Below, piece after piece: positions 42,429-62,561 of a DNA stretch of 64,000 nucleotides; position 1 is the first letter of the stretch, and every line of letters begins with the position of its first letter. The stretch is from assembly GCA_965205975.1 (NCBI GenBank), contig OZ242195.1:2112001-2176000 (forward strand), given 5' to 3'. Both the position numbers and the translations under genes were made by a program. Source of the DNA: Candidatus Latescibacterota bacterium (GTDB lineage Bacteria > Latescibacterota > UBA2968). Below the pieces are notes generated by a model that was not told the DNA's origin, searched no databases, and saw only the letters and a program-made list of their open reading frames with translations.

Positions 42429-42455
42429 CCATCCCCAAGCACAAAAGGATTTTTT

Positions 42456-43049: not shown

Positions 43050-43056
43050 GGCTGGA

Positions 43057-44671: not shown

Positions 44672-44797
44672 TCCTTTACCCTCCTCAAAATGGAAAAAAA
44701 TGGAATGGAAATAACTTGCTTATTCGATGGCTTAAATTACATTCCGAAGCAAAATTTCGCCACTATTTTTTATATATCTCTCTATTCAATATCATCT

Positions 44798-45058
44798 ATG
44801 CTCATGAAGAACTCAATTAAAAATAAAGTGAAAAGCGTGGTTATTGATTCATTAGAGCTTAGTATTGCTCCAGATGAAATGGACAATAATGATATATTAT
44901 TTGGTGAAGGATTAGGTGGGAACTCAATGGCACTGATGGAAGTGATCGTTGGCCTTGAAAAGGCTTTTGAGATAGAAATATCTGATGAAGAGTTAATCAT
45001 GGGTGTTTTTGAGACCGTAAATAGCATTGCTGAGTTCATAAAATCCAAAATATCCTGA
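44798..45058 (+). CDS. Acyl carrier protein
   Basis: LFGEGLGGNSMALMEVIVGLEKAFEIEISDEEL...FETV.SIAEFI; Ppant Ser retained, preceding Asp is Asn. Confidence 0.85.
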   Translation: MLMKNSIKNKVKSVVIDSLELSIAPDEMDNNDILFGEGLGGNSMALMEVIVGLEKAFEIEISDEELIMGVFETVNSIAEFIKSKIS

Positions 45059-45081: not shown

Positions 45082-46218
45082 GTGACAAGAAGAAAGAGAC
45101 TAATTTTTTATAGCCAACATCTCGTAGGTGTAGGGCATCATTTTCGCAATCGCCAGATCATTCGCGCATTGGCTGACGAATATGACGTTTATTTTATTGA
45201 CGGCGGCAGACCAGTGCCAGGGGCGACGCTGCCAGCTTCGGTGCAAACATATCATCTGACTCCTGTCTTCAAAGACCTGACTTCCGGGCGCTTAACCTCG
45301 GAAACTGGATATGATATCCAGACAGTATTAAAAGCGCGGAAGCAGTCACTGAATAGAGTGGTTACCCGTATTTGCCCTGATATTTTTATCATCGAATACT
45401 TCCCTTTTGCCCGTTGGGAACTCGCCAGTGAATTGCTTGCCGCCATCTGCAAAGCGCGATCTATTAACCTCAATATTCGCATTATATGTTCGCTGCGCGA
45501 TGTGCCAAGGCGCACACAAAATGCTGATCGGGTTTATTCGATTTTGAATCGGCACTTTCACGCGCTCTTGATACACGCAGACCCCCAATTGACCCGGTTG
45601 GAGGATCATTTTCCCTATACGAACAAGATTCACATACCGATTCACTACACGGGGTATGTTGTAGAACCATTCAAAGACGTTGATAGTAGGTTCCAGAAAC
45701 AGAACAGCGTGCTGGTCAGTGCAGGTGGTGGGGCTGATGGTTATAATCTGATCAAACCGTGCATCAGAGCATGGCTGTATTTGTCTCAAAAAAACATTAT
45801 TGAAAACCAAAAAATGGTCATATTCACAGGCCCTTTTATGCCACAAGTACAATATGCTGATCTTAAATGCATGTGCAATGGCGGTCCTTTCCAAATTGAC
45901 CGGTTTACATCCCACTTTCTCCAATGGATGCAGTGTGCTGATCTTTCCATCAGCCGGGCAGGATATAATACCTGCATGAATATCCTGGAAACGCGCACCA
46001 AAGCCATTCTGGTCCCAGGTTCTCTCGTCAGCGATCAAAAATTCAGAGCAAAGAGAATGGCGGCATTAGGACTTGTCGAGTGTATAGCAAGTGATAGGTT
46101 GAATCCATTTTGTCTGGCTGAGTCTATACAGCACGGCCTGACCAAAGAACCATTGCATCATAATATTTCTCTAAATGGAGCTGAAGAAACTCGCCGATAT
46201 TTTGCTAACGTCAAATGA
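45082..46218 (+). CDS. GT-B glycosyltransferase (GT1/GT28-like)
   Basis: YSQHLVGVGH, IEYFPF.R, SLRD, YTGYV, VSAGGG, SRAGYNT. Confidence 0.85.
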   Translation: MTRRKRLIFYSQHLVGVGHHFRNRQIIRALADEYDVYFIDGGRPVPGATLPASVQTYHLTPVFKDLTSGRLTSETGYDIQTVLKARKQSLNRVVTRICPDIFIIEYFPFARWELASELLAAICKARSINLNIRIICSLRDVPRRTQNADRVYSILNRHFHALLIHADPQLTRLEDHFPYTNKIHIPIHYTGYVVEPFKDVDSRFQKQNSVLVSAGGGADGYNLIKPCIRAWLYLSQKNIIENQKMVIFTGPFMPQVQYADLKCMCNGGPFQIDRFTSHFLQWMQCADLSISRAGYNTCMNILETRTKAILVPGSLVSDQKFRAKRMAALGLVECIASDRLNPFCLAESIQHGLTKEPLHHNISLNGAEETRRYFANVK

Positions 46219-47207
46219 AAACGATGCCTAAAAACAAAGCCTTATCTCCTATTGGTCCATATATCAATCATATCTACGGACCTTCAAGAATAGACTATAA
46301 TCCTGATGAACTGATTGTGTTGTGTCTCGTTCGCGATGGGCAAGCCTACATGCGAACATTTATTGAACATTATTTGGAGCTTGGAATCAGACATATTGTT
46401 TTTTTAGATAATGGCTCAAAAGACAGGACGCTTGCCATTGCCAGGCAGTATCCTAAAATATCCATCTTTTCTACCGCGCTGCCGTATAAAGAATATAAAT
46501 ATCAAATGAAGGAATATTTGATTCGACGGTTCGGAAAAAACAGATGGTCGCTTTACGTCGATATCGACGAACTATTCGACTTTCCTTCATCAGACAAAAT
46601 CGGCATCACAGATTTTTTGGCTTACTTAAACGCGCATTCATTTACTGCAGTTGTGGCACAAATGCTCGATATGTTTTCTGAGGATACATTGGGAAATTTG
46701 CCCAACGCAGAATCGACATCCTTAATGGCTACTTGCAATTATTACGATTTGTCGGAGATAACTAAAAAAGTGTATTCAGATGCCAAATTTTGTCCTCATA
46801 ATTTTGTTTCTAACGAAAAGATTACCCACTACAAAGGTGGCATAAGGCAAACACTTTTTGGCGCGGATTGTTCATTGACGAAACATCCGCTTATTTTTTT
46901 AGATGATGAAATTGAGCCTATGTGCCAGTCTTCTCATAAAATCGAAAATGGGTATATCGCAGATATTACAACTGTGCTCTACCATTTCAAATTCATTGAG
47001 GGTTTTGAAAGCCTCACTCAAAGGGCGGTTCGTGAAGAGAATTACTCAATGAACTCACGAGAATATAAGCGGTACTACGAAGTCCTGAAACGCCACCCCA
47101 ATCTGAAGATCAAACAAATAACTTCGAGAAAGCTGAACAACGTCAATGAATTGGTGGAAAACGGGTTTCTTGTTGTTTCGGAAAATTTTCAGAATTGGAT
47201 TTCCTGA
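46215..47207 (+). CDS. GT-A glycosyltransferase (GT2-like)
   Basis: VRD, FIEHY..LG, FLDNGS.D.T, WSLYVDIDE (DxD), HFKF. Confidence 0.85.
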   Translation: MKTMPKNKALSPIGPYINHIYGPSRIDYNPDELIVLCLVRDGQAYMRTFIEHYLELGIRHIVFLDNGSKDRTLAIARQYPKISIFSTALPYKEYKYQMKEYLIRRFGKNRWSLYVDIDELFDFPSSDKIGITDFLAYLNAHSFTAVVAQMLDMFSEDTLGNLPNAESTSLMATCNYYDLSEITKKVYSDAKFCPHNFVSNEKITHYKGGIRQTLFGADCSLTKHPLIFLDDEIEPMCQSSHKIENGYIADITTVLYHFKFIEGFESLTQRAVREENYSMNSREYKRYYEVLKRHPNLKIKQITSRKLNNVNELVENGFLVVSENFQNWIS

Positions 47208-47230: not shown

Positions 47231-48259
47231 ATGAAAAAAGAATTGCCAATCGGAATGCCCCGAATCACTTGCGCACTTCACCATGCTTATCCCCTGTCCA
47301 TATTGGCAATCTCGGATGATTATCTTCCCTGGTTTTATAGCCATTACATCCAGATGGAATTTCAAACAGACGAAAAACAAAAATTCAACTTTTATCGCTA
47401 TCCCAAATATCATATGGCTGTATCGCCCTGGTTGCAGACCCAAATCGTGCATCATAATGTCATTCGCAAGGCGTACAAAAAAATCGTAGATTTTGTTATA
47501 GACGCCATTGATGAGGATCTATATGTCCAGATGGATGTTGACGAGTTTTATATACCTAACAAGGCATTGTACCACAGTCGGCATTACACCCGTGAATTGC
47601 TTATTTACGGATATGACGCACCAAACCAAACCCTTACGATCTTGGGCTTTGACGCAAAGGGAAATTACACATCAAGTGAGGTCCCTTTTTTTAATTTCGA
47701 GCAAGCGCATATAAATTCTATATCGCGCAATGAACAGGATTGCAGAGTACGGATGTTTAAATATCTCGATAATGCATACTATGAATTCGAACTTGAAGTC
47801 GTGCTTGAGCAATTACAAGATTATCTCTATGCCGTAAATACGTCAAAAAGATTTAGAAGTTTTTCGCGTGTTAAAAACTATGCGTATGGTCTTGCGACAT
47901 ATCGGGTTATTCAGAATTATCTTTCGTTTTTTGCCAAGAATGCGAGCGATATTAACCGCCTCATTTTTCACACACTTTGGGAACACAAACAATGCATGCA
48001 AGAACGCCTTCATTTTTTGGAACAACACGGGTTTTTAAGTTCATCTCATGCCTTGTCTATGGCTTATGCAGGCGTGAAAAAAGAGACAGAGAAATTGCGT
48101 GCGATGTCTTTTAAGTATGTCCTGACAAAAGATGCTGCGATTCTGGGAAGAATGATCGAATTGATCAATATAATTGCACTGGAAGAAGAGGCGATATTGG
48201 ATCGCGTTTGTGATGCACTGAAGACCATCATAAAAGCAAGAAGGAGGAATAATGGCTAA
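47231..48259 (+). CDS. BtrH N-terminal/C39-like fold protein (putative acyltransferase or peptidase)
   Basis: ITCALHHAYPLSI, WFYSHYIQ, DEFYIP....Y...H...ELLIYGYD, YGL..Y, LWEHK..M..R. Confidence 0.65.
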   Translation: MKKELPIGMPRITCALHHAYPLSILAISDDYLPWFYSHYIQMEFQTDEKQKFNFYRYPKYHMAVSPWLQTQIVHHNVIRKAYKKIVDFVIDAIDEDLYVQMDVDEFYIPNKALYHSRHYTRELLIYGYDAPNQTLTILGFDAKGNYTSSEVPFFNFEQAHINSISRNEQDCRVRMFKYLDNAYYEFELEVVLEQLQDYLYAVNTSKRFRSFSRVKNYAYGLATYRVIQNYLSFFAKNASDINRLIFHTLWEHKQCMQERLHFLEQHGFLSSSHALSMAYAGVKKETEKLRAMSFKYVLTKDAAILGRMIELINIIALEEEAILDRVCDALKTIIKARRRNNG

Positions 48260-49421
48260 GTATGCCGATCCTATCAAAGTCTGTTTTGCAACCTGGCAGT
48301 ATCCGCCGGATAAGGGAGGAGTCGGTCGGTCAGCACAACGGATTGCGACATATCTTGTGGAATTGGGATTTGATGTTCACGTCTTTGTACCAGATACCTC
48401 AACGCCTTTTTCCGATGATATACCAACACCCGTCACAGAGAATGGTATTCATTTATATCGCGTATCCACTGGGGCATCTGTATCTGGTAAAGAACAGGCG
48501 ATGTTTCTGACCATCAAACATTACGACGACTTGATATCCTTTGACATATTTCATGGCTTTTTCTTGCCTATCGCATATCCCTGCATCCTTGTTGCTGGGC
48601 GTACAAAGAGACCTGTTATTGCGAGCATACGAGGTGTTGATGGTTTTGGTCTGCTGGCGAATCTCGATTACTTCCCTTATATCTCTGCCGCAGTAGAAAG
48701 AGCGTCCTGGATTACCTCCGTCAATAGTGCGTTGTTAGACAATGTTTCTGTGATTTCAGATATTGAGAATAGATCGTCATTTATACCCAATTCAATAGAT
48801 GCCACAACATTTCCAAAATGGAGACCAGAGGCAGAAAACTCCGGTACGATAGGGACAGTTGCCATATTTCGCAGTAAGAAGAACTTGTCCTTACTTATTT
48901 CTGCGTATGCTAAAATAGACCCAAAACACCGCCGAAAGCTTCTACTGGTCGGCGAATTTGCCGAATATTCTAATCCCACAAAGGCAAATGCCATAGACAC
49001 CGAAAAAGCCAAAATTACCGCGTTGATTAAACAACAAGCTCTAGATAGCGAAGTCGATATGACGGGTTTCTTGGATAAAGCAGGTGTACAAGCACAGCTA
49101 TTAAACATGAATGTGTATGTGCAGTGCTCTAAATACGAAGGACTTCCAAATGCTCTTTTAGAAGCCGCCGCTGTTGGCCTTCCGATTGTTTCTACGGCGA
49201 CTGACGGCATGAAAGATGTGTTGGTAGATGGCGAAAGTGCCTTGCTTGTACCACCTGATGATCCCACTCGGCTTGCCCATGCAATAGAGATGATTTTGAC
49301 GAACGACACTCTAACACAGAAATTGTCAGAAGGAGCTCTCAAATTAGCGGAACAGCTAAGTCCGGCGTGCGAGCGAGATTTGTGGGTCCAACTTTATTAT
49401 CAATTGCTTGATATGAAATAG
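48252..49421 (+). CDS. GT4 glycosyltransferase
   Basis: YPP..GGVG, ASIRG.D, IPNSID, KK, YEGLPNALLEAAAVGLPIV. Confidence 0.9.
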   Translation: MAKYADPIKVCFATWQYPPDKGGVGRSAQRIATYLVELGFDVHVFVPDTSTPFSDDIPTPVTENGIHLYRVSTGASVSGKEQAMFLTIKHYDDLISFDIFHGFFLPIAYPCILVAGRTKRPVIASIRGVDGFGLLANLDYFPYISAAVERASWITSVNSALLDNVSVISDIENRSSFIPNSIDATTFPKWRPEAENSGTIGTVAIFRSKKNLSLLISAYAKIDPKHRRKLLLVGEFAEYSNPTKANAIDTEKAKITALIKQQALDSEVDMTGFLDKAGVQAQLLNMNVYVQCSKYEGLPNALLEAAAVGLPIVSTATDGMKDVLVDGESALLVPPDDPTRLAHAIEMILTNDTLTQKLSEGALKLAEQLSPACERDLWVQLYYQLLDMK

Positions 49422-49452: not shown

Positions 49453-51306
49453 ATGAGTGTAAAAATCGCTGTTGTTGATAGTGGTATTGAAAGTTCTCAT
49501 CCTGGTATAGGAACAGTTGCCGGTGGTGTGAATTTGTCATTGAATGAAGAAGGAAATGTTATTCAATCTGACGATTATGAAGATTATGCGGGTCACGGAA
49601 CAGCATGTGCAGGCATTATTCGAAAGAAGGTTCCCGATGCTGAATTGTATAGCATTCGGATTTTTGATCCGTCACTCTCTGCCCACGGTGATGTTTTAAT
49701 TGCGGCGATTGAGTGGGCGATTGAGAATAAAATGGATGTTTTGAATCTGAGCCTGGGTTCGACAGATGTATCCTATAAAGAGCGGCTTAGAGACGTATGC
49801 CTGCGAGCCGTTAAAGCCGGGATGATCATTGTTGCTGCCGAGCACAATGCGGGTCTTGAATGCTATCCGGCTGTCTTCCCTGAGGTCATAGGTGTTGGTG
49901 GTGGAGATATCTACCATCCAGATACCTACCTTTACAGAGATGCACAGACTATTGAATTTGTCGCAAGGGGGAATAAACAGAGACTTTGCTGGTTGGATGG
50001 CAAGGAAATCATCAGCGATGGAACCAGCTTCGCAGCACCCCATATTACAGGGATTGTAGGACGATTACTTCAGGAAAATCCCGGGCGATCATTATCTGAA
50101 ATCAGGCAAATACTCATTGAGAATGCAGAAAAAATACCACCTGATTCGCAGGCTGTTCAGTCCCTACGGAGGCAGAGATCTCTTGACAGGGATTACAGTT
50201 GGGTTAAAAGGGCGGTCTTATATCCGTACAATAAAGAAATGCATTCTCTGGTGCGTTATCGCGACATGCTGCCATTTGAGATTGTTGCTGTCGCCGATCC
50301 GGTAGCAAAGGGGTTGGTGGGAAAAGATGCGGGCGTGGTTATAGGAGAACAACCGTGCGGGTTGCGTATTCAGCCCAATTTGTCTGAAGCATTGCGCGAA
50401 GGAGATACACTTATCCTGGGCTATGTGGATCAGTTAATGCGGATACAACAGCGAGATTTGCTCAAGGAACTGATCAAGATGGCATTGGAAGCAGGTCTAA
50501 ATATTTTCAGTTTTCAAGTCGTCGATCCAGATCGCTATCGAGACTTATATCAATTGGCTGAACAGAACAACCGGTCTATTGTATTTCCACATATTGGTTT
50601 TGACGAAATCGTTGCATCTCAAGAGGCTTATGATCTTTACCCTAATGTCGATGCGCCTGTGGTCGCTGTGATGGGTACGAGTTCTCAACAGGGCAAATTC
50701 ACGTTGCAGATGGCTTTGCGCCGGTCATTCTTAAAGGCTGATTACAAAGTGGCTCAGATTGGTACAGAACACCACTCGGAACTGTTTGAAATGGATTTTG
50801 CCTTTCCGATGGGGTATGGATCAACGCTCAAAATGCCTCAGCAATCTTATGTGCCGTTTTTGGATTTTAAGATGCGCGAAATCAATCACCACAAGCAACC
50901 CGAGATTATCATCACGGGTTCACAATCTGGCACCATACCTTATGATGTTTATGATCACAATACACATTCTCTATCTTCGCTTGCATTTCTTCTCGGTGTC
51001 AAACCAGATGCGTGTGTGCTTGTTGTCAACAGTATTGATACCCATGAATACATCCGGGACACGATAGATGGCATACGCGCGATATGCAAAGCACCGACTC
51101 TGGCACTTGCCATGGGAGACAAAGAAAAGCATGTCCGCACGGCTTATGGCAAAAGCCTTGTGACGACGAGTGAGTTGTCACAAAAAGAAATCAATTCGCA
51201 TCTCAAACGGTTGACGGATACGTTCAGCTTGCCAGCAATACAAATATTATTAGAGAACGATCAAGAAAGGTTATTCAAAATCATCGTGGAATATTTTTCG
51301 AGATAG
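49453..51306 (+). CDS. S8 serine peptidase fused to a DUF1611/TIGR04066-like peptide-maturation domain
   Basis: Triad VVDSG / GHGTACAG / GTSFAAP; C-terminal LYPYNKE, GKDAG, P-loop-like GTSSQQGKFT, QIGTE, GSQSG. Confidence 0.85.
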   Translation: MSVKIAVVDSGIESSHPGIGTVAGGVNLSLNEEGNVIQSDDYEDYAGHGTACAGIIRKKVPDAELYSIRIFDPSLSAHGDVLIAAIEWAIENKMDVLNLSLGSTDVSYKERLRDVCLRAVKAGMIIVAAEHNAGLECYPAVFPEVIGVGGGDIYHPDTYLYRDAQTIEFVARGNKQRLCWLDGKEIISDGTSFAAPHITGIVGRLLQENPGRSLSEIRQILIENAEKIPPDSQAVQSLRRQRSLDRDYSWVKRAVLYPYNKEMHSLVRYRDMLPFEIVAVADPVAKGLVGKDAGVVIGEQPCGLRIQPNLSEALREGDTLILGYVDQLMRIQQRDLLKELIKMALEAGLNIFSFQVVDPDRYRDLYQLAEQNNRSIVFPHIGFDEIVASQEAYDLYPNVDAPVVAVMGTSSQQGKFTLQMALRRSFLKADYKVAQIGTEHHSELFEMDFAFPMGYGSTLKMPQQSYVPFLDFKMREINHHKQPEIIITGSQSGTIPYDVYDHNTHSLSSLAFLLGVKPDACVLVVNSIDTHEYIRDTIDGIRAICKAPTLALAMGDKEKHVRTAYGKSLVTTSELSQKEINSHLKRLTDTFSLPAIQILLENDQERLFKIIVEYFSR

Positions 51307-51325: not shown

Positions 51326-52189
51326 ATGCCACGTCAATCAATGGTTCTGGCCTGCGCCGATTCTGTCTTTCTATCCGAAATGCGTTCTGAAATAGAGAAA
51401 AATTTTGAAATCGAGATCATCGAAACCATAGACAGCAAGGACAGACTTTGGGGTTGTTTGAAGGAAATGAGGCCCTCGGTCCTCTGCATCTCAACGGATT
51501 TACTCGACAGCATTGGGCAAGTCTCTAAAATCAGGAAGTCGGCGAAGAGATCAAAACTGATTATTTGGGGCGAGGATAATATCGCCCTTGCTGTTGACGC
51601 GATGTATTTGGGGGCTGATTACTATGCCCTGAAAGGAGGGAATCTCGCGTTCTTTTTGGAAAAACTCCAGAAGATCACGGGTTTAAGAAAAAGATCCCAC
51701 TCTGTTTGGGCTTCAAAATTAGATGGTTTTTTGAGAGACCAGTTCAAAAATTCATCCTTAAATTTAAGCGTCTTGTGCGATCATTTCGGGATTTCACCGA
51801 GCTATGCGACGCGGTTGTTCCGCGAACATATCGGGATATCCTTTCACAAGTATTTGTCCTTTTATCGCGTGGAAGAAGCAAAACGCTATCTTGCCGACAC
51901 CAAAGACCTGATTTATGAGATTGCTGACAAATGTGGATTCACAGACAGCAACCACCTGATCAGAGTTTTTTTTAAATTTACAAATATGTCTCCAGACCAA
52001 TATCGAAAGTCTTTACAAGACACTGATTGGTTGGAATACAATTTGTCTGGTCATTCTATGCAGTTAAGCACCTCCCAACACCTGACGCGGCCCAACCAAT
52101 TACAAAAGAGAATATTCCGATACGACAACAGCTCTGTGACCGGTTTTGCAACAAAAGCGGAGTGTTCCAAACTCTGTTCTCGCATATGA
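51326..52189 (+). CDS. AraC-family regulator with degenerate receiver-like N-terminal domain
   Basis: ISPSYATRLFRE..G.SF, R.EEAK.YL, IYEIA.KCGF.DSNH..RVF.K...SP.QYRK; GGAGG RBS. Confidence 0.88.
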   Translation: MPRQSMVLACADSVFLSEMRSEIEKNFEIEIIETIDSKDRLWGCLKEMRPSVLCISTDLLDSIGQVSKIRKSAKRSKLIIWGEDNIALAVDAMYLGADYYALKGGNLAFFLEKLQKITGLRKRSHSVWASKLDGFLRDQFKNSSLNLSVLCDHFGISPSYATRLFREHIGISFHKYLSFYRVEEAKRYLADTKDLIYEIADKCGFTDSNHLIRVFFKFTNMSPDQYRKSLQDTDWLEYNLSGHSMQLSTSQHLTRPNQLQKRIFRYDNSSVTGFATKAECSKLCSRI

Positions 52190-52352
52190 GGACGAAGAAG
52201 ACGGCGTAGGCAAAACTACTCTATACGTGCCCTCAGCTTACTGTAACTGGGAAATTGAAGGATGTAGTACTCGTTACAATTATGATGGAGATTGCACTGC
52301 GATAACTTGGACGGGTGATGGTTGGACTATATTCACTTGTTTTGATGGTTAA
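52146..52352 (+). CDS. Putative RiPP precursor peptide 1 (4 Cys); start uncertain, possibly 5'-damaged
   Basis: NSVLAYEDEED shared with 59537-59764 at protein and DNA level; TTG start, no clear RBS, overlaps the AraC tail. Confidence 0.65.
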   Translation: MQQKRSVPNSVLAYEDEEDGVGKTTLYVPSAYCNWEIEGCSTRYNYDGDCTAITWTGDGWTIFTCFDG

Positions 52353-52403: not shown

Positions 52404-52439
52404 ACAGGACAATGTACTTGCTATAGTATGTTGTCCTGT
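52404..52439 (+). repeat. Conserved junction hairpin ACAGGACAA-N17/18-TTGTCCTGT, copy 1 of 6
   Basis: Other copies at 53738-53772, 57873-57907, 59223-59257, 59838-59872, 61268-61302. Confidence 0.85.
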
Positions 52440-52499
52440 TTCATATTTATTATGAGCGATTTTTCGATTCCGCTGAATTTTGTTCTGAGAGGTAGTGCT

Positions 52500-53684
52500 A
52501 TGAGAAAATCAATCATTCTATTTTGTGCTTCTTGCTTATTTTTTTCCTGCAATCAAAATGCAGAAATATCTCAAGACAAGCCGCCTTTGCAAAATGTAGC
52601 GGCACAGACAGTAGAGAAACAGAAGATACGGATGGAGAAGGTTTCTGAGATCCACCTTCAAGAGAATGAGGAAATTTATATTGGAACAATTCAGAGAATA
52701 AGAGTTGACCAAAACAGAATTTATCTCATGGATAGGAGCCGTAAGCAAGTTCTGATATATTCTATGGAAGGTGAATTTATTCGCGCCTTAGGCAGAAGCG
52801 GCGAAGGTCCTGGAGAGTTTCGCTATTTATATACAATGGATGTCAAAGATCACTTGGTTGCCTGCTTTGACCAAGGAAATATGCGAATGACTTTGTTTGA
52901 TACTTCGGGGGTATTCATCAGGTCTTTTGGAACCCGCTCACAAGACTCTGTTCCTTTGGGCAATTGTGTTGCAATCACACAACATCATACCATTCTACAC
53001 TGCCAGCAATCTACGAAGTTAACAAGAGAGGATGACTTGAAACTCTCCTATCCGTGGTTGATCTGTGAATTTGATACATTGGGTAATGTTCTCTCGCATC
53101 ACGGAAAATTCAACCGCCAGATTGTTGGTGATAAAATTGACAAACCGTTCACTGAATTCAAGTGGTCATTTCCTCGTTTTATCACAAGCAGAGATTCTCA
53201 AATATTTCTTTATTTTTTTAATATCCCTATTGTTGTTAGATATGACGAAAGCCATGCGGTTTCCCAAGTCTTCAACGTTGCAACGTCTATTACGAAACCC
53301 AAGTGGGTTGATAAAAACGCGGAAAAACTTCAGCATTTGAGTCCAGAGGCAAGAGCAAAATTGGCCATTCAACGAATGAAAAATGAGCATTCAATAATAA
53401 CATTTATTTCCGATATTGCTTATGTTGATAAGCATTCACTTCTATTTATTTTGCAAGGAGAGGAAGGACGCCAAGGCATTGATCGGACGCGCTCTTATTA
53501 TCTGAGTGCGTATGATGTGAATACTGGGCATCGTTTAATGACGGATATGCACCTACAATCAGAAAAATCTGTGTACTTCCAGCGCATAGCCGTTGACCAA
53601 AATGGCTTTATTTATAGCATCCATAACCATCAGCCTGACAATTTTGTAATCGCTAAATATGAGATCATCAGAGAGGAAATTTAG
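52500..53684 (+). CDS. 6-bladed beta-propeller lipoprotein, subtype A
   Basis: Lipobox LFFSC; G.FIR.LGR.GEGPGEF motif. Confidence 0.85.
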   Translation: MRKSIILFCASCLFFSCNQNAEISQDKPPLQNVAAQTVEKQKIRMEKVSEIHLQENEEIYIGTIQRIRVDQNRIYLMDRSRKQVLIYSMEGEFIRALGRSGEGPGEFRYLYTMDVKDHLVACFDQGNMRMTLFDTSGVFIRSFGTRSQDSVPLGNCVAITQHHTILHCQQSTKLTREDDLKLSYPWLICEFDTLGNVLSHHGKFNRQIVGDKIDKPFTEFKWSFPRFITSRDSQIFLYFFNIPIVVRYDESHAVSQVFNVATSITKPKWVDKNAEKLQHLSPEARAKLAIQRMKNEHSIITFISDIAYVDKHSLLFILQGEEGRQGIDRTRSYYLSAYDVNTGHRLMTDMHLQSEKSVYFQRIAVDQNGFIYSIHNHQPDNFVIAKYEIIREEI

Positions 53685-54802
53685 AGATCAAGAACTGGAC
53701 TAAATTCAATTCGAATACCTTTCACTGGAATGAGACAACAGGACAATGCACTTTTATCGTGTGTTGTTCTGTTGCATTTTAATGATTTAATTATCGATAT
53801 TCGATAATGATTTGAGCTTCACATGGGACATAAAATGACAAATTGGACAGTCTGTGTTTTGATCTGTGCGTTGGCGGTAGGCTGTCAGTCTGAGCAAGCC
53901 CCTGCTGTGGACGAGATACCGACCACCGACGTTCAAACGAAGCCATCTAATCAGGACAAAAAATTCGCGCTACAAAAGGTCTCAGAAATTCTGCTTGTAG
54001 AAGATCCCGATGATCCAATCGGAATTATCAAAGGTCTTCGCATTGACCAGGACCGCATTTATCTGATGGATACCAGCCAAAAAAGAATCATGGCTTTTAC
54101 CATAGATGGGCAATTTGTTCGCACCATTGGACGACAGGGCGGCGGACCGGGCGAGTTTCGTCAGTTATTTACCATGGATGTGAGAGACGGTTTAATTGCG
54201 TGTTTTGACCAGGCCAGGAGTCGCATTACCCTATTTGACACTTCGGGCACTTTTTTGAACTCCTTTGGAGCACGCACCAAAGCGTCTGCACCTTCGGGGA
54301 ATTGCATACGCATTACCCCGCAAAAAACCCTGTTGCTTTGCCATAAATCGTCTGAAGCACCCAAAAAACAAATAGAAGAAAACAATTACACCTGGACAAT
54401 ATGCGAATTTGATACACTCGGCAATGTGCTTTCGTATTTTGCACCGTACAATCAAGACATTGTAGGAGATAAACTTGAGCGTCCTTTGAATGAGTATGCG
54501 TTTTCGTTTGCCCAATTTCGTGCATCCAGTCCAGCCATAACACATCTTTGGAGGGGAAATATTCCGATTGTCGTTGCATATAAGGGACGTCAATCCATAG
54601 AGAAAACCATTGATATAAAAACAAATCTTACCAAGCCCAGATTTAGACAAGAGGCTGGCAAGATGCGTCAATCGCAGGGACCACCAACTGCTGCAAGCGT
54701 TAGAGCCAGGATAGAGAAACTTCAAAAAAATCCCCGTATAGAAACTTCTATACGGGATGTTTGGAGTTACCCCGCTTCGGTGGAGTATTTAGGGCTTGTG
54801 TA

Positions 54803-55651
54803 TCAAGCCTGTGATAGATGCAGTTTTTCATAAGCTATCGGCGCATAGTAGGCGATGGAAGAATGCCTGCGATGCGGGTTATACCATCCTTCAATATAGG
54901 AGAAGATAGCTAACCGCGCTTCCTTATGCGTACGGAAGCAACGACGATTGATCAACTCACACTCCAAGGTGGCGAAGAAGCTCTCGCACAGTGCGTTGTC
55001 ATAGCAGTCGCCAGCAGATCCCATTGAGGGACGCACGCCAGCCTCACGGCAACGCTTTCCAAATGCTATGGAGGTATATTGTGCCCCCTGGTCAGAGTGG
55101 TGGATCACGTCTTCGGGACGGCGCTGGTAAAGGGCCATATTTAAAGCTGACACGACCAACTCACTTTGCAGGTGTGTTGCCATAGCCCAACCCACGACGC
55201 GGCGGGAGAAGGCGTCCAAGACAACACTCAGATACAAGAAGCCAGACCAGGTGGGTACGTAGGTGATGTCAGCCACCCAGAGTTTATTGACCGTTGGCAC
55301 AGTAAAGTCTCGCTTTATCAGATCGGGAGCCTTTCTATCCTGATGCGCCTGACGCGTCGTTTGCGTGCTCTTTCGGCGAGAAACGCCACAAATGCCCATC
55401 TCACGCATCAGGCGTGCTACGCGCTTCTTCCCTACTCGGATACCCATATCCATCAGGTCTTTCCAGATGCGAGGGGCACCATAGGTGCTATCTGATCGGG
55501 TGTGAAAGGCTTTGATATGCGCCTTCAACTGTGCATCAACCTTTGCGCGTTTAGAGGCCGGACGTGCTCGCCAGGCATAATACCCGCTGAGGGAAACACC
55601 CAGCGTTCGGCATTGCATGGCGATTGGCCAACGTGCCTGGTGCGCTTTCAC
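54803..55651 (-). CDS. IS3 transposase OrfB (DDE integrase core)
   Basis: YGAPRI, WVADITY, HHSDQG.QY, DNA..ESFF..LE.E, YNP.R.HS. Confidence 0.95.
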   Translation of the reverse strand: MKAHQARWPIAMQCRTLGVSLSGYYAWRARPASKRAKVDAQLKAHIKAFHTRSDSTYGAPRIWKDLMDMGIRVGKKRVARLMREMGICGVSRRKSTQTTRQAHQDRKAPDLIKRDFTVPTVNKLWVADITYVPTWSGFLYLSVVLDAFSRRVVGWAMATHLQSELVVSALNMALYQRRPEDVIHHSDQGAQYTSIAFGKRCREAGVRPSMGSAGDCYDNALCESFFATLECELINRRCFRTHKEARLAIFSYIEGWYNPHRRHSSIAYYAPIAYEKLHLSQA

Positions 55652-55962
55652 GAACGCGAAGATTTTTTGGGGATCGCGTCGGTCTCCGCTGCGAACCAGG
55701 CCGCTGCTTTTGACAATATCTCGCGCTCAATGCGCAACTGCTTGTTCTCACGTCGAAGACGACGCAACTCTTCGCGCTCAGAACTGGTCAGGCCGTCTTC
55801 TCGAAGTCCTTCATCTCGATCAGCCTGACGTATCCAGTTTTGGATCGTCTGAGCGGTTGGCTCAAACTCTTTGGCCAACTCGGATGGAGAGCGACCAGCG
55901 CGCACAAGCTCGACGATCTGGCGCTTCAACTCGGATGGATAAGGCGGACGTGTTGGTGGCAT
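55648..55962 (-). CDS. IS3 transposase OrfA
   Basis: MPPTRPPYPSELK HTH, EL.RLRREN.QLR.EREIL.KAA; AGAAAGGA RBS. Confidence 0.92.
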   Translation of the reverse strand: MPPTRPPYPSELKRQIVELVRAGRSPSELAKEFEPTAQTIQNWIRQADRDEGLREDGLTSSEREELRRLRRENKQLRIEREILSKAAAWFAAETDAIPKKSSRS

Positions 55963-56401
55963 AGTGGGTCTCCTTTCTGAGTACTGATAAGGTACCCACC
56001 AAAACGGGTCAAGTCCAGTATTTGATGAAGCGCATTCAATTTTGCTTGTTTTACAAACTAAAAGCATATATCGAGGCACAGGCCCTGGAGGAGTAGGTGC
56101 GGAACGCTCTTGTTTCTTAAGTCTTTTTGACTATGATTCAGGACAAAATATCCTATCCGATATGCGATTTCCGGACCGCGAAGAGCAGCCAACGTATGTC
56201 AGAATAGATATGGATGCAGATGGGGCGATTTATTGTATAGAAAATGATGCGCCTGATAACTACGTTATTGGGAAGTATCGCCTTGTCGGAGAAAGCGCGA
56301 GAAAGGAGTAAATTTGTAGGTCGGGAGGTCGTGCGATTCGTTACATCGGGAACTGGTCTTCGTCGCGAAACAAAATTCTGTTACTTGGCATAAGAGAAAG
56401 C

Positions 56402-56437
56402 AAAAGGACAACCTCCACAACAAGAGGTTGTCCTTTT
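56402..56437 (+). terminator. Hairpin sharing the AGGACAA/TTGTCCT core with the junction repeat
   Basis: aaaaggacaacctc-cacaacaa-gaggttgtcctttt. Confidence 0.7.
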
Positions 56438-56439
56438 AA

Positions 56440-56481
56440 TATTCATTGCAAGTTTTTCTTTATTCATTGCAAGTTTTTCTT
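56440..56481 (+). repeat. Perfect 21-bp tandem duplication
   Basis: tattcattgcaagtttttctt x2. Confidence 0.9.
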
Positions 56482-56566
56482 TCGCGCTATATTTTGGTCA
56501 ATGCGTCATTGTTTGAAGCGGCCTTGCAATACGCGACAATGATTTGAGCCTCACATAGGACATAAA

Positions 56567-57775
56567 ATGGCAAAATGGACAGTATGTGTCTTGATCTGTG
56601 CTTTGTCGGTGGGATGTCAGTCTGAACAAGCTCCTGCTGTAGCTGAGGTGCCTAAAGACGACATTCAAATGAAGCCACCCAATCATGACAGGAAATTCAC
56701 ACTACAAAAGGTCTCAGAGATTCTGATATTAGAAAACCCAGATGAGCCCATTGGGGTCGTCAGTGGTTTGCGCGTAGATCAAGACCGTATTTATTTAAAG
56801 GATAAAAGTCAAAAAAGGATCATGGTTTTTACCATCAATGGGCAATTTGTTCGCTCCATTGGGCGACAAGGAGGCGGCCCGGGTGAGTTTCGCCGTTTAT
56901 ATACCATGGATGTTAGAGATGGTTTAATTGCATGTTTTGACGAAGGAACCCGTCGGATTACGCTGTTTGATAGTTCTGGCGTTTTTTTGAACTCCTTTGG
57001 AGTACGTACCAAAAAGTCTGTTCCAGCAGGGAGTTGCATCAGCATTACTCCGCAAAAAACCCTGATACTTTGCTCTGAATCAATAGAGTCGCCAAAAAAA
57101 CAAATGGCAGAACACAATTATCCCTGGTTAATATGCGAATTTGATACGCTCGGTAATGTGCTTTCGTATTTTGCTCCATACAATGATAAAGTATTGGGAG
57201 ATAATCTTGAGAAACTTGAAAGACCATTGCACGAATATGAGTTTTCTTTTGCAATCTTTCGGTCAGACTCTCCAACCATAACACATCTTTGGATGGGAAA
57301 TATTCCTATTGTCGTCGCATATCAGGACCGTCAATCCATCGAGAAAACAATCAATGTCAAAACTGCCCTCACCAAACCCAAATTTAGAGAAAAGAAGGAA
57401 AATGTTGGTCAACAGCAAGGACCAACCGCAGCAAGCGTTAGAGCCAGGATAGAGAAACTTCGGAAAAATCCCCGTGTAGAAACTTCTATATCGGATGTTC
57501 TATTTGACGAAGAGCATTCACTATTGCTCGTTTTACAGCAACAAGTAACACTGCGAGGGGGACCACCGGAACGCGCCTATTTCTTAAATCTCTTTGACTA
57601 TGATTCAGGGCAGAACATCCTATCCGATATGCGATTTCCTAATGTTGAAGAACAGCCAAGGTATGTCAGAATAGATATGGATGCTGGTGGCGCGATTTAT
57701 TGTATAGAAAATGATGCGCCTGATAACTACGTCATTGGGAAGTATCGCCTTGTCGAAGAAAGCGCAAGAAAATAG
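56567..57775 (+). CDS. 6-bladed beta-propeller lipoprotein, subtype B
   Basis: Lipobox LSVGC; GRQGGGPGEF; paralogue of 53835 and 59995. Confidence 0.85.
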   Translation: MAKWTVCVLICALSVGCQSEQAPAVAEVPKDDIQMKPPNHDRKFTLQKVSEILILENPDEPIGVVSGLRVDQDRIYLKDKSQKRIMVFTINGQFVRSIGRQGGGPGEFRRLYTMDVRDGLIACFDEGTRRITLFDSSGVFLNSFGVRTKKSVPAGSCISITPQKTLILCSESIESPKKQMAEHNYPWLICEFDTLGNVLSYFAPYNDKVLGDNLEKLERPLHEYEFSFAIFRSDSPTITHLWMGNIPIVVAYQDRQSIEKTINVKTALTKPKFREKKENVGQQQGPTAASVRARIEKLRKNPRVETSISDVLFDEEHSLLLVLQQQVTLRGGPPERAYFLNLFDYDSGQNILSDMRFPNVEEQPRYVRIDMDAGGAIYCIENDAPDNYVIGKYRLVEESARK

Positions 57776-57981
57776 AGCCTCAAATCAAAAAACCGTCTGA
57801 ATCAGGATGGGCAAGATGAGCGGATAAGCAGGATAAGGCACGGGTTGTTCCATAGCACTTAGAAGTTAGATCACAGGACAACGTACTTGCAGAGTATGTT
57901 GTCCTGTTTTAATATTCCTGATGAGTATTCCTTATGAGCGATTTTTCTATTGCATTGGACTTTGTTCTGAAGAGGTTGTGT

Positions 57982-59169
57982 ATGACAAAATCAATCATTC
58001 TGTTTTGTGTTTCCTGCTTCTTTTTTGCATGCAATCAGGATGCAGAAGTATCGCAAGACAAACCGTCTTTGCAAAATTCAGAGGCACAAACAGTAGAGAA
58101 CCATCAAATACGTATGGAGAAGGTTTCTGAGATCCACTTAAAGGAAAATGAAAAAGCGTATATTGGAGAAATAAAAAAAATAAAAATTAATGAAAATCGA
58201 ATCTTTCTTATGGATAAGAGTCTGAAGCAGGTTCTGATATTTTCTATGGAAGGTGAATTTGTTCGTGCCTTAGGCAGGAGCGGTGGAGGGCCTGGCGAAT
58301 TTCGCTTTTTGTATACGATGGATGTCAAAGACAACTTAGTCGCTTGTTTTGACCAGGGAACACGTAGAATGACCTTGTTCGACACTTCGGGTGTGTTCAT
58401 CAGGTCTTTTGGAACCCAGTCGCAAAGGTCAGTTCCTCAGGGCAATTGCGTTGCAATCACACAACATCATACGATTTTACACAGCCAAAACCCTAAGGGA
58501 CTACCCAAAAAGCAGTGGCTATCATACACCTATCCTTATTTGATCTGCGAATTTGATACATTGGGCAACGTCCTATCCCATTATGGAAAATTCAACCAGC
58601 AGATCGTCGGAGACAAACTTGATAAACCATTAACTGAATTTGAGTGGTCATTTCCTCACTTTATCGCAAGTGGAAAGTCTCAAACGTACCTTTGGTTTGC
58701 TAATATTCCTCTTGTTGTCAAGAATGACGAAAGTAATGAGATTTCCAAAGCCTTCAACGTAGCAACGCCGATTACGAAACCGAAGTGGGTTGATAAAGAC
58801 AGAAAGAAAAAGGAAGAAGAAATGCGACATTTGAGTAATAAAGAAAAAATGATGCTGGCCATTCAACTCATGAAAAACGACCATTCGACAACAACACAAA
58901 TGTATGACATTGCTTATGTTGATAAGCATAAAATTTTATTGACTTTACAAACAGAAGAAGTGCGCCGAGGCTTTCCTCACTGGACGCGCACTCGCTATCT
59001 GAGTGCGTATGATGTGCATACTGGGCAACGTTTAATGACGGATATCCCTCTCCAATCGAAATACGAGACTTTGGCCGTTGACCAAGATGGCTTTTTCTAT
59101 TGTATTCAGAGTGATAAACCTGACAATTTTGTAATCGCCAAATATGAGATCATTAGAGAGGAAATTTAG
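57982..59169 (+). CDS. 6-bladed beta-propeller lipoprotein, subtype A
   Basis: Lipobox FFFAC; paralogue of 52500. Confidence 0.85.
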   Translation: MTKSIILFCVSCFFFACNQDAEVSQDKPSLQNSEAQTVENHQIRMEKVSEIHLKENEKAYIGEIKKIKINENRIFLMDKSLKQVLIFSMEGEFVRALGRSGGGPGEFRFLYTMDVKDNLVACFDQGTRRMTLFDTSGVFIRSFGTQSQRSVPQGNCVAITQHHTILHSQNPKGLPKKQWLSYTYPYLICEFDTLGNVLSHYGKFNQQIVGDKLDKPLTEFEWSFPHFIASGKSQTYLWFANIPLVVKNDESNEISKAFNVATPITKPKWVDKDRKKKEEEMRHLSNKEKMMLAIQLMKNDHSTTTQMYDIAYVDKHKILLTLQTEEVRRGFPHWTRTRYLSAYDVHTGQRLMTDIPLQSKYETLAVDQDGFFYCIQSDKPDNFVIAKYEIIREEI

Positions 59170-59304
59170 AGGTCAAGAACTGGACTAAATTCAATTCGAA
59201 TACTTTTCACTGGAATAAGACAACAGGACAATGCACTCAAAAAGTGTGTTGTCCTGTTCCTTTTTGCAGAATCGCACGGACACGCATTTGGAAGAACCTG
59301 GATA

Positions 59305-59417
59305 TTTGCTACAAAAGATGTGTTTCAGTGTGCAAAATAGATACGTATGGCAGAAAATGATATTCATAAGGTTTGTCGCATCAATCACAAGGCTATATCT
59401 TTAGATCAAGTTACGAT
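59305..59417 (+). promoter_or_regulatory. 113-bp putative promoter/operator, duplicated at 61552-61664
   Basis: tttgctacaaaagat...caaaatagatacgt.tggcagaaaatgatatt.ataaggtttgt...gttacgat in both copies. Confidence 0.65.
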
Positions 59418-59536
59418 GCAGAGTGCATTGAGGTTGTTCACTACAGAGAGCCGCGTGATTGTTTGGTCAAAAGCATTTTGCTGACCTTTATAGCCGCCAT
59501 CCAGCGGATCTCTAAACATAACGAAAGGAGTTTCAA

Positions 59537-59764
59537 ATGAAGCGCGTATTGTCCAAACCTCAGCACGAGGTTGCGAACTCTGTTCTCGCGTATCAGGACG
59601 AGGACGACGAGCAAGATTGTTCTGGTTCGTACTGGTACGCAAACAATCAGTGGTTCGCGCATTGGCCCTGTGATGCCGTCTGTGAAGACCATGATTGCTG
59701 GGAAAGAGAAGGCGCAGGGTCTTGCACATTGGTTTCTGATGGCAGCGAGCAAACATGTTACTGA
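59537..59764 (+). CDS. Putative RiPP precursor peptide 2 (6 Cys, 4 Trp)
   Basis: AAGGAG RBS + ATG; leader MKRVLSKPQHEVANSVLAY then an acidic Cys-rich core. Confidence 0.8.
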   Translation: MKRVLSKPQHEVANSVLAYQDEDDEQDCSGSYWYANNQWFAHWPCDAVCEDHDCWEREGAGSCTLVSDGSEQTCY

Positions 59765-59994
59765 TTTCATTGTTTCGTGGTGAGTTTATTCCAAATTCTA
59801 AGGAATACTTTCCCTAGAAATCAGGAAGGTATAGGTGACAGGGCAACGCATTTCTGTAGTGTGTTGTCCTGTTTCATATTGACACGCACGATATTTGACT
59901 TGATGATGCGTTATTTCAGAGGCTATATTACAATCATATGTGGGCACTGCCCTTTCGCGGATGACTATTTGAATCTCATAATGGGGTGTAAAAC

Positions 59995-61206
59995 ATGAAA
60001 CGATCGGTAATATGTCTTTGTTTTTTTTTCTGTGCTTTGGCAGGAGGCTGTCAATCCGAAAAAGAGCTAGCTTTACCTGAGGAAGAAGATCAAGCAAAGA
60101 TACCTGATCAAGCAAAAAAATTTGCTCTACAAAAGGCCTCAAAAATTCTACTCGTGGAAAACCCAGATGACCCAATCGGAGTCATCAAAGGGCTCCGCGT
60201 TGACCAAGACCGCATCTATCTGATGGATACGAGTCAAAAAAAAATTATGGTTTTTACAACCGAAGGCAAATTCATTCGCTCAATTGGGCGGCAGGGTGGT
60301 GGACCGGGTGAGTTTCGTCAGTTATTTACCATGGATGTAAGAGACGGTTTAATTGCTTGTTTTGACCAAGCCAGACGTCGAATTACGCTGTTTGACAGTT
60401 CAGGCGTCTTTTTGAACTCCTTTGGAGCACGCACCAAAGAGTCTGCTCCTGCAGGGAACTGCATAAGCATTACACCAGATAGAACACTTTTGCTTTGCCA
60501 TGCATCGTCAAAATCGCCAAAAAAACAAATAGCAGAACACAATTATCCCTGGTTAATATGCGAATTTGACACGCTTGGTAATGTTTTTTCTTATTTTGCC
60601 CCGTACAATAACAAGATATTGGGAGATAAACTTGAAAGACCATTGCAAGAATATGAGTTTTCTTTTGCCCAGTTTCACGCACTTAGTTCAAACATAACAC
60701 ATCTTTGGAGAGGAAATATTCCGATTGTCATTGTATATAACCATCAATCCATCGCGAGAACTATAGATGTTAGAACGGCTCTTACCAAATCTAAATTTAG
60801 AGAAAAGAGAGAAAATGTTCATCAATCACAGAAACCAACCGCATCAAGCCTTCGAGCTATGGCGGAGAAACTGCGGAAAAATCCTCGTATAGAAACTTCT
60901 GTAAGGGACGTACTGTTTGACGAGGCGCATTCATTGTTGCTCGTTTTGCAGCAAAAACGCACATATCGAGGCAGTGGGCCAGGAGGAGTAGGTTCGGAAG
61001 ATGCGTACTTCTTAAGTCTCTTTAACTATGATTCAGGACAAAATATCCTATCAGATATGCGATTTCCAGACCGCGAAGAACAGCCAACGTATGTCAGAAT
61101 GGATATTGATGATTCTGGAGCTATTTATTGTATTGAAAATGACGCACCTGATAACCACGTCATTGGGAAGTATCGCCTTGTCAAAGAAAACGCGAAAAAG
61201 GAGTAA
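59995..61206 (+). CDS. 6-bladed beta-propeller lipoprotein, subtype B
   Basis: Lipobox LAGGC; GRQGGGPGEF. Confidence 0.85.
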   Translation: MKRSVICLCFFFCALAGGCQSEKELALPEEEDQAKIPDQAKKFALQKASKILLVENPDDPIGVIKGLRVDQDRIYLMDTSQKKIMVFTTEGKFIRSIGRQGGGPGEFRQLFTMDVRDGLIACFDQARRRITLFDSSGVFLNSFGARTKESAPAGNCISITPDRTLLLCHASSKSPKKQIAEHNYPWLICEFDTLGNVFSYFAPYNNKILGDKLERPLQEYEFSFAQFHALSSNITHLWRGNIPIVIVYNHQSIARTIDVRTALTKSKFREKRENVHQSQKPTASSLRAMAEKLRKNPRIETSVRDVLFDEAHSLLLVLQQKRTYRGSGPGGVGSEDAYFLSLFNYDSGQNILSDMRFPDREEQPTYVRMDIDDSGAIYCIENDAPDNHVIGKYRLVKENAKKE

Positions 61207-61664: not shown

Positions 61665-61718
61665 ATCTTGGACATCACAATAGGACTTCAGTTTGAATCG
61701 ATTTTGAAAGAGCGTTTT

Positions 61719-62417
61719 ATGGACAAAACCTTAAATCATACCCCCTTAAAATTGCCGATACCCAAAAAGGCGATGATCGGTTTGGGAAGCCTGATTCTCG
61801 TGGGATGGGCAATCATTACAGTTATCTTGTTTGTCGAATATCGCAAAAGCAAGGTGTTGCTTACCGAGTATTCACCTATTGTAGAAAAGTATAATTATTT
61901 TAAGAATTTAGGAGAACAACACAGAACGCTGGAAACGATGACTTTTCCTGAGGCTTCTCTAAGAATCTTGACTGGCGATTCAACAGCAGTAAGCAATCTC
62001 CAGGAAAGAACGGATTACGCTGTTGCGATTCTTTTTACGAAAAATGATTGTTCATCCTGTTTGGAGACCGAGTTGGACTTATGGCAAAAGTTTTACCCCC
62101 ACAATGCAGAAAACCTCGATGTGGTCGCCATAGCCAAAATCACCCCACTGACAACGCGAGAAAAAATTGAAAGAGAACTTGGAGGCCTGTGGAAAGAGCC
62201 TGTTTATTATGATGAAAATAAGCCTTCGCTATTCGAACATCTGAATATTATACATACACCGACTTTGCTATTTTATGAAAAAAGAACGCGCAAAATTATA
62301 TACGCGCACCTCGGAATGGTTGGTGATCGCGTTGGGCCAGAGAGTTTTAAGCAAAAAGTGGCAGCCTGGCTCAAGCTCAAAGGTAAGACAGTAAATCTGG
62401 ACTATGATAAATCTTGA
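61719..62417 (+). CDS. Membrane-anchored thioredoxin-fold protein (TlpA/ResA-like)
   Basis: N-terminal TM, DCSSC, HTPTL cis-Pro motif. Confidence 0.7.
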   Translation: MDKTLNHTPLKLPIPKKAMIGLGSLILVGWAIITVILFVEYRKSKVLLTEYSPIVEKYNYFKNLGEQHRTLETMTFPEASLRILTGDSTAVSNLQERTDYAVAILFTKNDCSSCLETELDLWQKFYPHNAENLDVVAIAKITPLTTREKIERELGGLWKEPVYYDENKPSLFEHLNIIHTPTLLFYEKRTRKIIYAHLGMVGDRVGPESFKQKVAAWLKLKGKTVNLDYDKS

Positions 62418-62561
62418 GGCAATCGGAATGCAGGCTGCGTTGAATGGGTAAATTGACGGGATCATAGCCCTGTGATTTTTGATTAAGAGTGGAGGTTGTT
62501 TTGGACACTTATAGCTCCACTCTTTTTTTGTCGCGCATGTCTTCTCTGTTTGGCGTGTATT

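Follow-up and report, generated by a model that had tools for sequence, protein, structure and literature searches.

A cytoplasmic subtilisin-type protease that continues, within one polypeptide, into a DUF1611 domain raises the question of what such an enzyme does, and to which substrate. The protein is encoded in a stretch of 64,000 nucleotides of a Candidatus Latescibacterota bacterium (contig OZ242195.1, positions 2,112,001 to 2,176,000 of the forward strand), here called the window, where it is accompanied by an acyl carrier protein (ACP) and by small peptides with a basic leader, the putative precursors. Judged by sequence comparison, this S8-DUF1611 fusion system is a real, conserved and uncharacterised variant of the CLI_3235/CcpM-type peptide cassette of Bacillota, and it is probably the catalytically complete form of that cassette, with the fusion protein as the likely core maturase for peptide export. 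In the proposed order of events, the S8 domain would take off the basic leader right before a conserved Tyr (V-L-A/Y-Q-D-E in precursor 2, the slash marking the cut). The DUF1611 domain would then move an acyl group from the phosphopantetheinyl-ACP of the cassette to the freed Tyr amino group, recognising a conserved Glu as its handle, and the capped peptide would leave through a predicted ATP-binding cassette (ABC) exporter. This chain as a whole is put forward tentatively, as somewhat more likely to fail at one of its steps than to hold throughout. The comparisons cover 59 loci with a full fusion and 80 held-out metagenome loci of a distant branch.

The fusion protein and its two domains

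49453..51306, + strand: S8-DUF1611 fusion open reading frame (ORF), 617 aa
49453..50142, + strand: S8 (QhpE-like) protease domain, residues 1-230, with D9 (49477), H48 (49594), N132 (49846) and S192 (50026)
50206..51306, + strand: DUF1611/TIGR04066-like domain, residues 252-617, with a Rossmann-like part and a P-loop part; motifs NKEMH (260-264), GTSSQQGKFT (408-417), GTEH (437-440), GSQSG (489-493) and N526/D529

Residues 3-230 match Pfam Peptidase_S8 (PF00082) with 99.1 bits against a cut-off of 21.8, and this part has a subtilisin fold in the model. In the alignment with subtilisin, D9, H48 and S192 fall on the triad and N132 on the oxyanion Asn; among 82 aligned homologues D9 is kept in 81, H48 and S192 in all 82 and N132 in 76, and the triad is intact in 126 of 130 diverse full-length relatives with a median identity of 29%. 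Since the catalytic Asp is already the ninth residue and the ATG is preceded, at a distance of 13 codons, by an in-frame stop, a signal peptide or pro-domain is excluded. The sequence-only reading of this DNA, which had described an intact triad with neither element, is thereby borne out, as is its description of some 370 Rossmann-like and P-loop-like residues after the protease. The nearest NCBIfam families are QhpE (NF049966; 152.1 bits, cut-off 165) and TIGR04066 (128 bits, cut-off 200), the latter covering profile positions 1-360 of 361 with a score still under the cut-off. Like QhpE, its best NCBIfam match, the S8 part is a short cytoplasmic protease without a pro-domain. Unlike QhpE it is fused to DUF1611, no qhp gene is found among the 18 cluster proteins scanned, and the oxyanion Asn is retained, so that single turnover is not to be assumed for the fusion.

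The C-terminal domain is recognised by both Pfam models of DUF1611, with DUF1611_N (PF17396) at residues 288-353 (23.7 bits, cut-off 22.6) and the P-loop model (PF07755) at residues 398-601 (44.2 bits, cut-off 25). The AlphaFold model of the full-length fusion has a predicted local distance difference test (pLDDT) of 87.9. Because Foldseek with this model returned subtilisins alone among the matches listed, the C-terminal 374 aa were folded separately (pLDDT 89.1). DUF1611 structures then occupied Foldseek ranks 1-7. The best structure matches were 2g0t (Z 30.3, root-mean-square deviation (rmsd) 2.9, 317 residues aligned), 2obn (Z 28.9) and DgcN 7xrj (Z 24.3), the three extending over 304-317 residues with an rmsd of 2.7-3.8, and the best fold outside DUF1611 reached Z 15. 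A PDB search with the domain as a single sequence gave one weak match; a profile search reached 2g0t.

The motifs of DUF1611 can be followed into the fusion as the pairs KTANGLVR/KEMHSLVR, GTDGAIGKRT/GTSSQQGKFT and ATGQTG/GTEHHS. K261, E262, G408, T409, Q413, G414, K415, Q419, E439 and Q491 are each kept in 128-130 of 130 sequences, and the conserved polar residues map onto the DUF1611 motifs with one exception, the Glu of EGQG, which is Gly in the fusion (reading TGSQSG). The P-loop lysine is followed by Phe or Tyr, not Ser or Thr.

DgcN acetylates free D-glutamate with acyl-CoA as the donor. The fusion has an identical two-domain fold and corresponding motifs to DgcN and the other solved DUF1611 proteins (7xrj, 2g0t, 2obn), but differs from them in its fusion to a protease, in the replaced EGQG Glu and in its linkage with an ACP and peptides instead of a racemase. 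The common fold with 7xrj (Z 24.3) would favour a DgcN-type acetylation of free D-glutamate that has no tie to peptides. Such an activity is nevertheless barely credible given the distance to the DgcN profile, the constant fusion to S8, the linkage with ACP and precursors, and the absence of a racemase among the recurrent annotated neighbours. DgcN orthology was rejected as well: the DgcN profile (NF041892) scores the fusion with 17.5 bits where 480 are required, the genome search gave no DgcN match, and the EGQG Glu is gone. Of the earlier label "DUF1611 (DgcN-like)", the first part therefore stands on fold and Pfam models, and the second was too strong.

Precursor peptides and the probable site of the cut

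59537..59764, + strand: precursor 2, intact, with ATG and ribosome-binding site, a basic leader to V16-L17-A18, then Y19-Q20-D21-E22; 6 Cys
52146..52352, + strand: precursor 1, 5'-truncated, SVLA/YEDE, 4 Cys; its TTG start derives from araC DNA

Both small ORFs contain NSVLAY, followed by E in precursor 1 and by Q in precursor 2, and a motif scan of the whole genome found no further small ORF with NSVLAY. The genome holds three full fusion copies with an ACP near each, and further tagged precursors occur at the other two. TIGR04065, the precursor family of the clostridial cassette, matches neither window peptide nor four relatives, while a clostridial control scored 61.7. The small precursors have in common a leader of the form M-K-x-L-x-K…V-x-[A/L]-Y. 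With a first leader rule, drafted post hoc after an earlier result had been seen, 40 leader-tagged small ORFs were found in 34 of the 59 loci, every one on the strand of the fusion, against a genome-wide background of 9 ORFs in 5.56 Mb, 2 of these at fusion loci. A similar rule without a condition after the Tyr found 50 such ORFs in 38 of the 80 held-out loci, 49 of them on the fusion's strand, with a few evident chance ORFs kept in the counts. The cores behind the leader are mutually unrelated; the shortest are Cys peptides of 9 residues, the longest proteins of about 120.

What recurs in these cores is a Glu shortly after the Tyr. It is found at Tyr+3 in 34 of 44 raw, 23 of 31 non-redundant and 23 of 41 held-out calls, and precursors without it mostly have a Glu a few residues closer or farther. 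At loci L028, L031 and L035 and at the third copy of this genome, the precursors lacking it often read Y-A-Y-E or Y-G-Y-E, which restores Tyr-x-x-Glu when counted from the first Tyr. The residue directly after the Tyr is variable (S 11, E 8, H 7, G 5, N 2, A 2 and five others once each; n=40). Thus the observation that Glu or Gln follows the conserved AY is correct for the window pair and does not extend to the relatives, where it applies to 9 of 40 precursors; an E/Q at +1 was rejected as the acceptor on this count.

A model of the complex between the fusion and precursor 2 lends weak support to their pairing. It scored 0.56, with 0.01 for the best of 3 controls and 0.00 in one of three runs, at a contact agreement between runs of at least 38% and a partner pLDDT of at least 54. 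Of 157 solved pairs, 116 attain the mark applied, as do 2 of 215 mismatched ones; at scores of 0.60 or less this group comprises 18 solved pairs only, plus both mismatches. The modelling gave no interface and is therefore silent on the register of the cut.

Cleavage of the leader by this S8 domain is predicted with considerable confidence, and the cut probably falls before the Tyr rather than after it, a preference drawn from the register of the QhpE substrate, from the Ala or Leu before the Tyr and from the non-Gly S1 positions. The residue before the Tyr is Ala in 38 of 55 cases in Latescibacterota and Leu in 35 of 60 in the held-out set, under a rule that permitted A, G, L or S only and with chance ORFs included. 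Residues 131 and 137 of the fusion, which align with Gly154 and Gly166 of the subtilisin S1 pocket, are Gly in 0 of 82 and Ser or Cys in 82 of 82 homologues, respectively; in the diverse set, 4 of 130 sequences have Gly at residue 131. QhpE takes a 28-residue leader off QhpC, according to the passages available of PMC7876137. In Paracoccus QhpC these 28 residues end in EEVVA and are followed by Met, which is numbered residue 1 in the solved subunit. By analogy, V-L-A/Y of the precursors would correspond to V-V-A/M of the QhpE substrate, whose leader is likewise basic at its start and whose cleavage likewise precedes ABC export. A cut at VLA/Y would expose Tyr-x-x-Glu at the new N-terminus.

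The sequence-only reading had placed the cut after AY, with acylation of the next residue. Val-x-Ala-Tyr does conform to the classical subtilisin preference at P4-P1. In addition, the leader of SacP23, from a related Paenibacillus cluster, is assigned to end at an aromatic residue, as a prediction only, in the part of PMC10731318 that was available. This combination of a cut after the Tyr with acylation of the next residue is all the same distinctly unlikely, since Leu is frequent before the Tyr (in 35 of 60 calls under the relaxed rule), Gly is missing from the S1 positions, the QhpE register is VVA/M, and the residue that would be acylated is variable, with E/Q in just 9 of 40. Neither the proposed cut nor the exposed E/Q as its acylated product was borne out; the conserved Glu lies at Tyr+3.

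The carrier protein and the proposed reaction of the DUF1611 domain

44798..45058, + strand: ACP (ORF 44690-45058, start probably at Met 2 or 3), with the Ser in GGNSM (codon 44924)

The ACP gene lies 4.4 kb upstream of the fusion, with three glycosyltransferase genes and a BtrH-like gene between them. An ACP is found in 48 of the 52 fusion loci with enough downstream DNA, directly 3' of the fusion in 41. Of 56 ACPs from the held-out loci, 55 carry the Ser motif, some four of these possibly out of register. A single phosphopantetheinyl transferase match was found in the genome, and in the fused-type loci L128-L207 a phosphopantetheinyl transferase gene is seen in 4 of 80.

The closest known system, the CLI_3235/CcpM cassette of Bacillota, consists of a TIGR04065 precursor, a TIGR04068 radical SAM enzyme, TIGR04066, TIGR04069, a subtilase and an ABC transporter. 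In common with the fusion system it has a leader of the type M-K-K-L-x-K…[VIL]-x-A-Y, a full-length DUF1611-like homologue, an ACP-like partner, a QhpE-like S8 protease and an ABC exporter. The fusion system differs in that S8 and DUF1611 are joined, with intact DUF1611 motifs and an ACP that retains its serine; its cores carry Tyr-x-x-Glu, and no radical SAM (CcpM) gene is found among the cluster ORFs here. Every family score is below its cut-off, that of TIGR04069 being 31.9 against 70 bits, and TIGR04069-type proteins lack the serine that the window ACP retains.

In the clostridial cassette the three features are lost together. None of 18 stand-alone TIGR04066 proteins keeps K261 or the GT…QGK loop (motif alignment with 44 of 87 sequences left after near-duplicate removal), in 13 of 13 partner ACP-like proteins the serine is replaced by Ala, Pro or Ile (read by eye), and a Glu within Tyr+1 to +6 occurs in 0 of 13 clostridial precursors, compared to 40 of 55 and 43 of 60 in the fused-type sets. 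In a quick tree of fused and stand-alone proteins, the latter form one branch with 99% support, and the joint loss therefore counts as one event. This loss connects the Glu with both the DUF1611 site and the ACP arm, without naming the reaction. The grouping of protease, DUF1611, ACP and tagged peptides into one system, as suggested from the window alone, thus recurs as one conserved system across loci.

A non-catalytic role of DUF1611 domain and ACP, as a scaffold for cleavage or export with acylation by BtrH-like or GNAT neighbours or none at all, would fit the Clostridia, which maintain an eroded TIGR04066 with a serine-less ACP-like protein. It would also fit the unrelated cores of 9 to about 120 residues and the presence of BtrH-like genes in 38 and of GNAT genes in 12 of the 59 loci. 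It is unlikely for the fused system, where the DUF1611 motifs hardly vary in their polar residues at a median identity of 29% and the ACP serine is retained alongside them. A catalytic, ACP-dependent step by the DUF1611 domain is marginally favoured. The best guess for its nature is N-acylation of the Tyr, because the fold is common with an N-acetyltransferase, the Mg-ATP residues are lost and the Tyr is fixed as the acceptor. The earlier suggestion of an acyl step with the cluster ACP consequently remains plausible in its donor, with the ACP serine kept alongside the DUF1611 motifs, and fails in its acceptor.

The DUF1611 domain might instead act on the Glu side chain, forming a gamma-glutamyl thioester on the ACP thiol that then yields a lactam with the Tyr amine or is transferred elsewhere by a BtrH-like or condensation-domain protein. 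The Glu is conserved at a variable spacing from the Tyr, the cassette has a dedicated ACP with no recurrent loading enzyme among the annotated neighbours, and dethiobiotin synthetase is among the next-closest folds of the P-loop part (Z 15). A further lead is the protein after the ACP at L046 and L047, with carrier and condensation domains and possibly a BtrH-like N-terminus. In butirosin synthesis, BtrI is the ACP and BtrH an ACP-dependent acyltransferase that handles a gamma-glutamyl acyl-ACP. A dedicated ACP next to a BtrH_N-like protein is found here too; unlike the butirosin pair, the fusion cassette has a ribosomal peptide as partner, no ATP-grasp loader among the recurrent neighbours, and, in the window, a BtrH-like type without the Cys. 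Action on the Glu side chain is quite unlikely, as the Cys is missing from this BtrH-like type, ring closure in Tyr-x-Glu cores would involve strain, and the Phe or Tyr after the P-loop lysine together with Gly for the Walker-B-type Glu of EGQG disfavours activation by Mg-ATP.

Several observations weigh against cleavage before the Tyr followed by ACP-dependent N-acylation. V-x-A-Y with a cut after the Tyr also suits the classical subtilisin preference, the S8 domain is 31% identical to QhpE over 151 residues and under the family cut-off, and the C-terminal domain has 16-17% identity to solved DUF1611 proteins. Four loci have no ACP within the DNA examined, no acyl-loading enzyme is conserved among the recurrent annotated neighbours, and 38 of 59 loci offer a second candidate acyltransferase in their BtrH-like protein. 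The Tyr-Glu spacing of 2 to 8 residues in the held-out loci fits a fixed anchor poorly. The co-loss occurred on a single branch only, so that Fisher values overstate it, and eroded TIGR04066/TIGR04069 pairs are still maintained, therefore a non-catalytic role exists.

Surroundings of the fusion gene and spread of the family

45082..46218, + strand: GT28-like glycosyltransferase, accessory, present in 7 of 59 loci
46215..47207, + strand: GT2-like glycosyltransferase, missing from the orthologous loci L002 and L003
47195..48259, + strand: BtrH_N-like protein, of the type without the Cys present in the other BtrH-like type
48252..49421, + strand: GT4 glycosyltransferase, missing from L002 and L003
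51326..52189, + strand: AraC-family regulator, 287 aa against 284 in orthologues, its last codons replaced by a deletion junction
52428..61206, + strand: five genes for six-bladed beta-propellers (DUF5128), in an array that surrounds the precursors; an insertion sequence interrupts the second gene
61668..63496, + strand: CxxC thioredoxin-like, rhodanese and MauE/DoxX genes
From 457 bases after the end of the window: genes for the ABC exporter (592 aa) and a membrane-fusion protein, and two pump-type genes of about 1050 aa

Three glycosyltransferases are held between 45082 and 49421, and because they sit inside the cassette, with GT2 and GT4 extra relative to L002 and L003, the product of this strain may be glycosylated. 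An ABC transporter is found at 45 of the 59 fusion loci, a BtrH-like protein of one of two types at 38, both types together at none, and a radical SAM enzyme at 4. The two BtrH-like types match in a profile comparison with a probability of 46.5 and E 0.0002, weak on its own. Of the 80 held-out loci, 63 have ABC genes and 44 have the main radical SAM cluster. At L046 (12168-14882) and L047 the usual BtrH-like gene is replaced by that of the 904-aa protein after the ACP, in which the BtrH-like N-terminus is a lead only (score 0.81-0.84). The fused-type loci L128-L207 have very short cores and radical SAM, transglutaminase-like, flavoprotein, methyltransferase and formyltransferase genes for tailoring. 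On the borders of the cassette, a helix-turn-helix-pentapeptide-repeat gene (43508-44671, - strand) diverges from the cassette start, three genes at 41757-43401 look by eye like those for the beta, alpha and accessory subunits of nitrile hydratase, and ahead of the exporter (63551-64000, + strand) there is an ORF of 246 aa that has an RRSGGT motif and may be sulfotransferase-like. A promoter scan gave 34 sites where 36.2 were expected.

The window copy has suffered damage. Precursor 1 lost its ATG, ribosome-binding site and first ~9 leader codons by a deletion of roughly 230 bases, which also took the araC stop; similarity to the orthologues L001-L003 stops at about 52150-52157, and in a related strain the ATG leader at this position is intact. 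The junction is crossed with zero differences by contigs from two runs of one study, which may be the source of the window, and coverage in one RNA run was limited to two pieces of the araC gene at a depth of 3.9. An insertion sequence, IS3-like by appearance (54803-56079, - strand), lies inside the second propeller gene (53823-56311), both halves of which match one contiguous gene in the orthologues. A hairpin of 14-16 pairs with arms (A)CAGGACAA…TTGTCCT(GT/TT) recurs at 52404, 53736, 56402, 57873, 59222 and 61267, 3' of genes in the peptide/propeller array, where it may govern transcript ends or stability.

The closest relatives of the fusion, at 93% identity, are from Latescibacterota. Of 31 related genomes, 20 have TIGR04066-like matches, all under the cut-off; up to 7 matches per genome are seen in sponge-associated Latescibacterota, and the fusion family is also present in gut or fermenter communities. 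A profile of the C-terminal domain retrieved 789 representatives at E<1e-30; among the 150 best of these, 130 are at least 560 residues long. In a phylum-wide draw of 401 genomes, the Firmicutes-type fusion profile had 1 match at E<=1e-60. True TIGR04066 proteins, over the cut-off, are found in 9 of 399 clostridial genomes and are all stand-alone; in 74 genomes of one Paenibacillus group, TIGR04066 gave 0 matches over the cut-off and 4 weak ones. A search for QhpC in 74 genomes found none. Short QhpE-like S8 genes stand beside GAF-domain genes at L062-L066, L123 and L124 (Brachyspira, Streptomyces, Miltoncostaea), with a cyclase gene also nearby at L123; this is a separate, signalling-type context.

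The full-text literature searched, which leaves subscription journals outside its coverage, holds no study of an S8-DUF1611 fusion, and the clostridial form is mentioned there in gene tables only. In the passages available, the clostridial-type cassette is listed for the SacP23 cluster (PMC10731318) and a Roseburia cluster (PMC4573289); the former source describes antibacterial activity together with a blocked N-terminus, and its suggestion of immunity for TIGR04066 is a guess. The blocked N-terminus of SacP23 and its unexplained mass of 3404 Da (PMC10731318) are not used as support here. The passages available of PMC12363236 and PMC10845958 name the pathway of DgcN without a mechanism, those of a protease review (PMC10885120) contain nothing on Qhp or ranthipeptides, and those of PMC12993501 add no mechanism.

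DUF1611 has a single named function, the acetylation of free D-glutamate, and TIGR04066 and TIGR04069 are annotated without any. With chances a little short of even, the S8-DUF1611 fusions may represent an undescribed class of ribosomal peptides, in which a portable leader and Tyr-x-x-Glu tag would bring a peptide to a DUF1611 amide-forming enzyme working on a dedicated ACP. The outcome would be lipidation of the N-terminal Tyr, or a Tyr-Glu lactam by way of ACP loading, and the clostridial TIGR04066/TIGR04069 pair would be a catalytically dead descendant. The corrected cut site and the position of the Glu make a first experiment precise. An acyl cap from a carrier on a trimmed peptide, if true, would be a modification so far undescribed, and if cleavage and then modification apply to any core behind a short tag, the fusions would form a new family of peptide-modifying enzymes and possibly a tool to cap or cyclise peptides.

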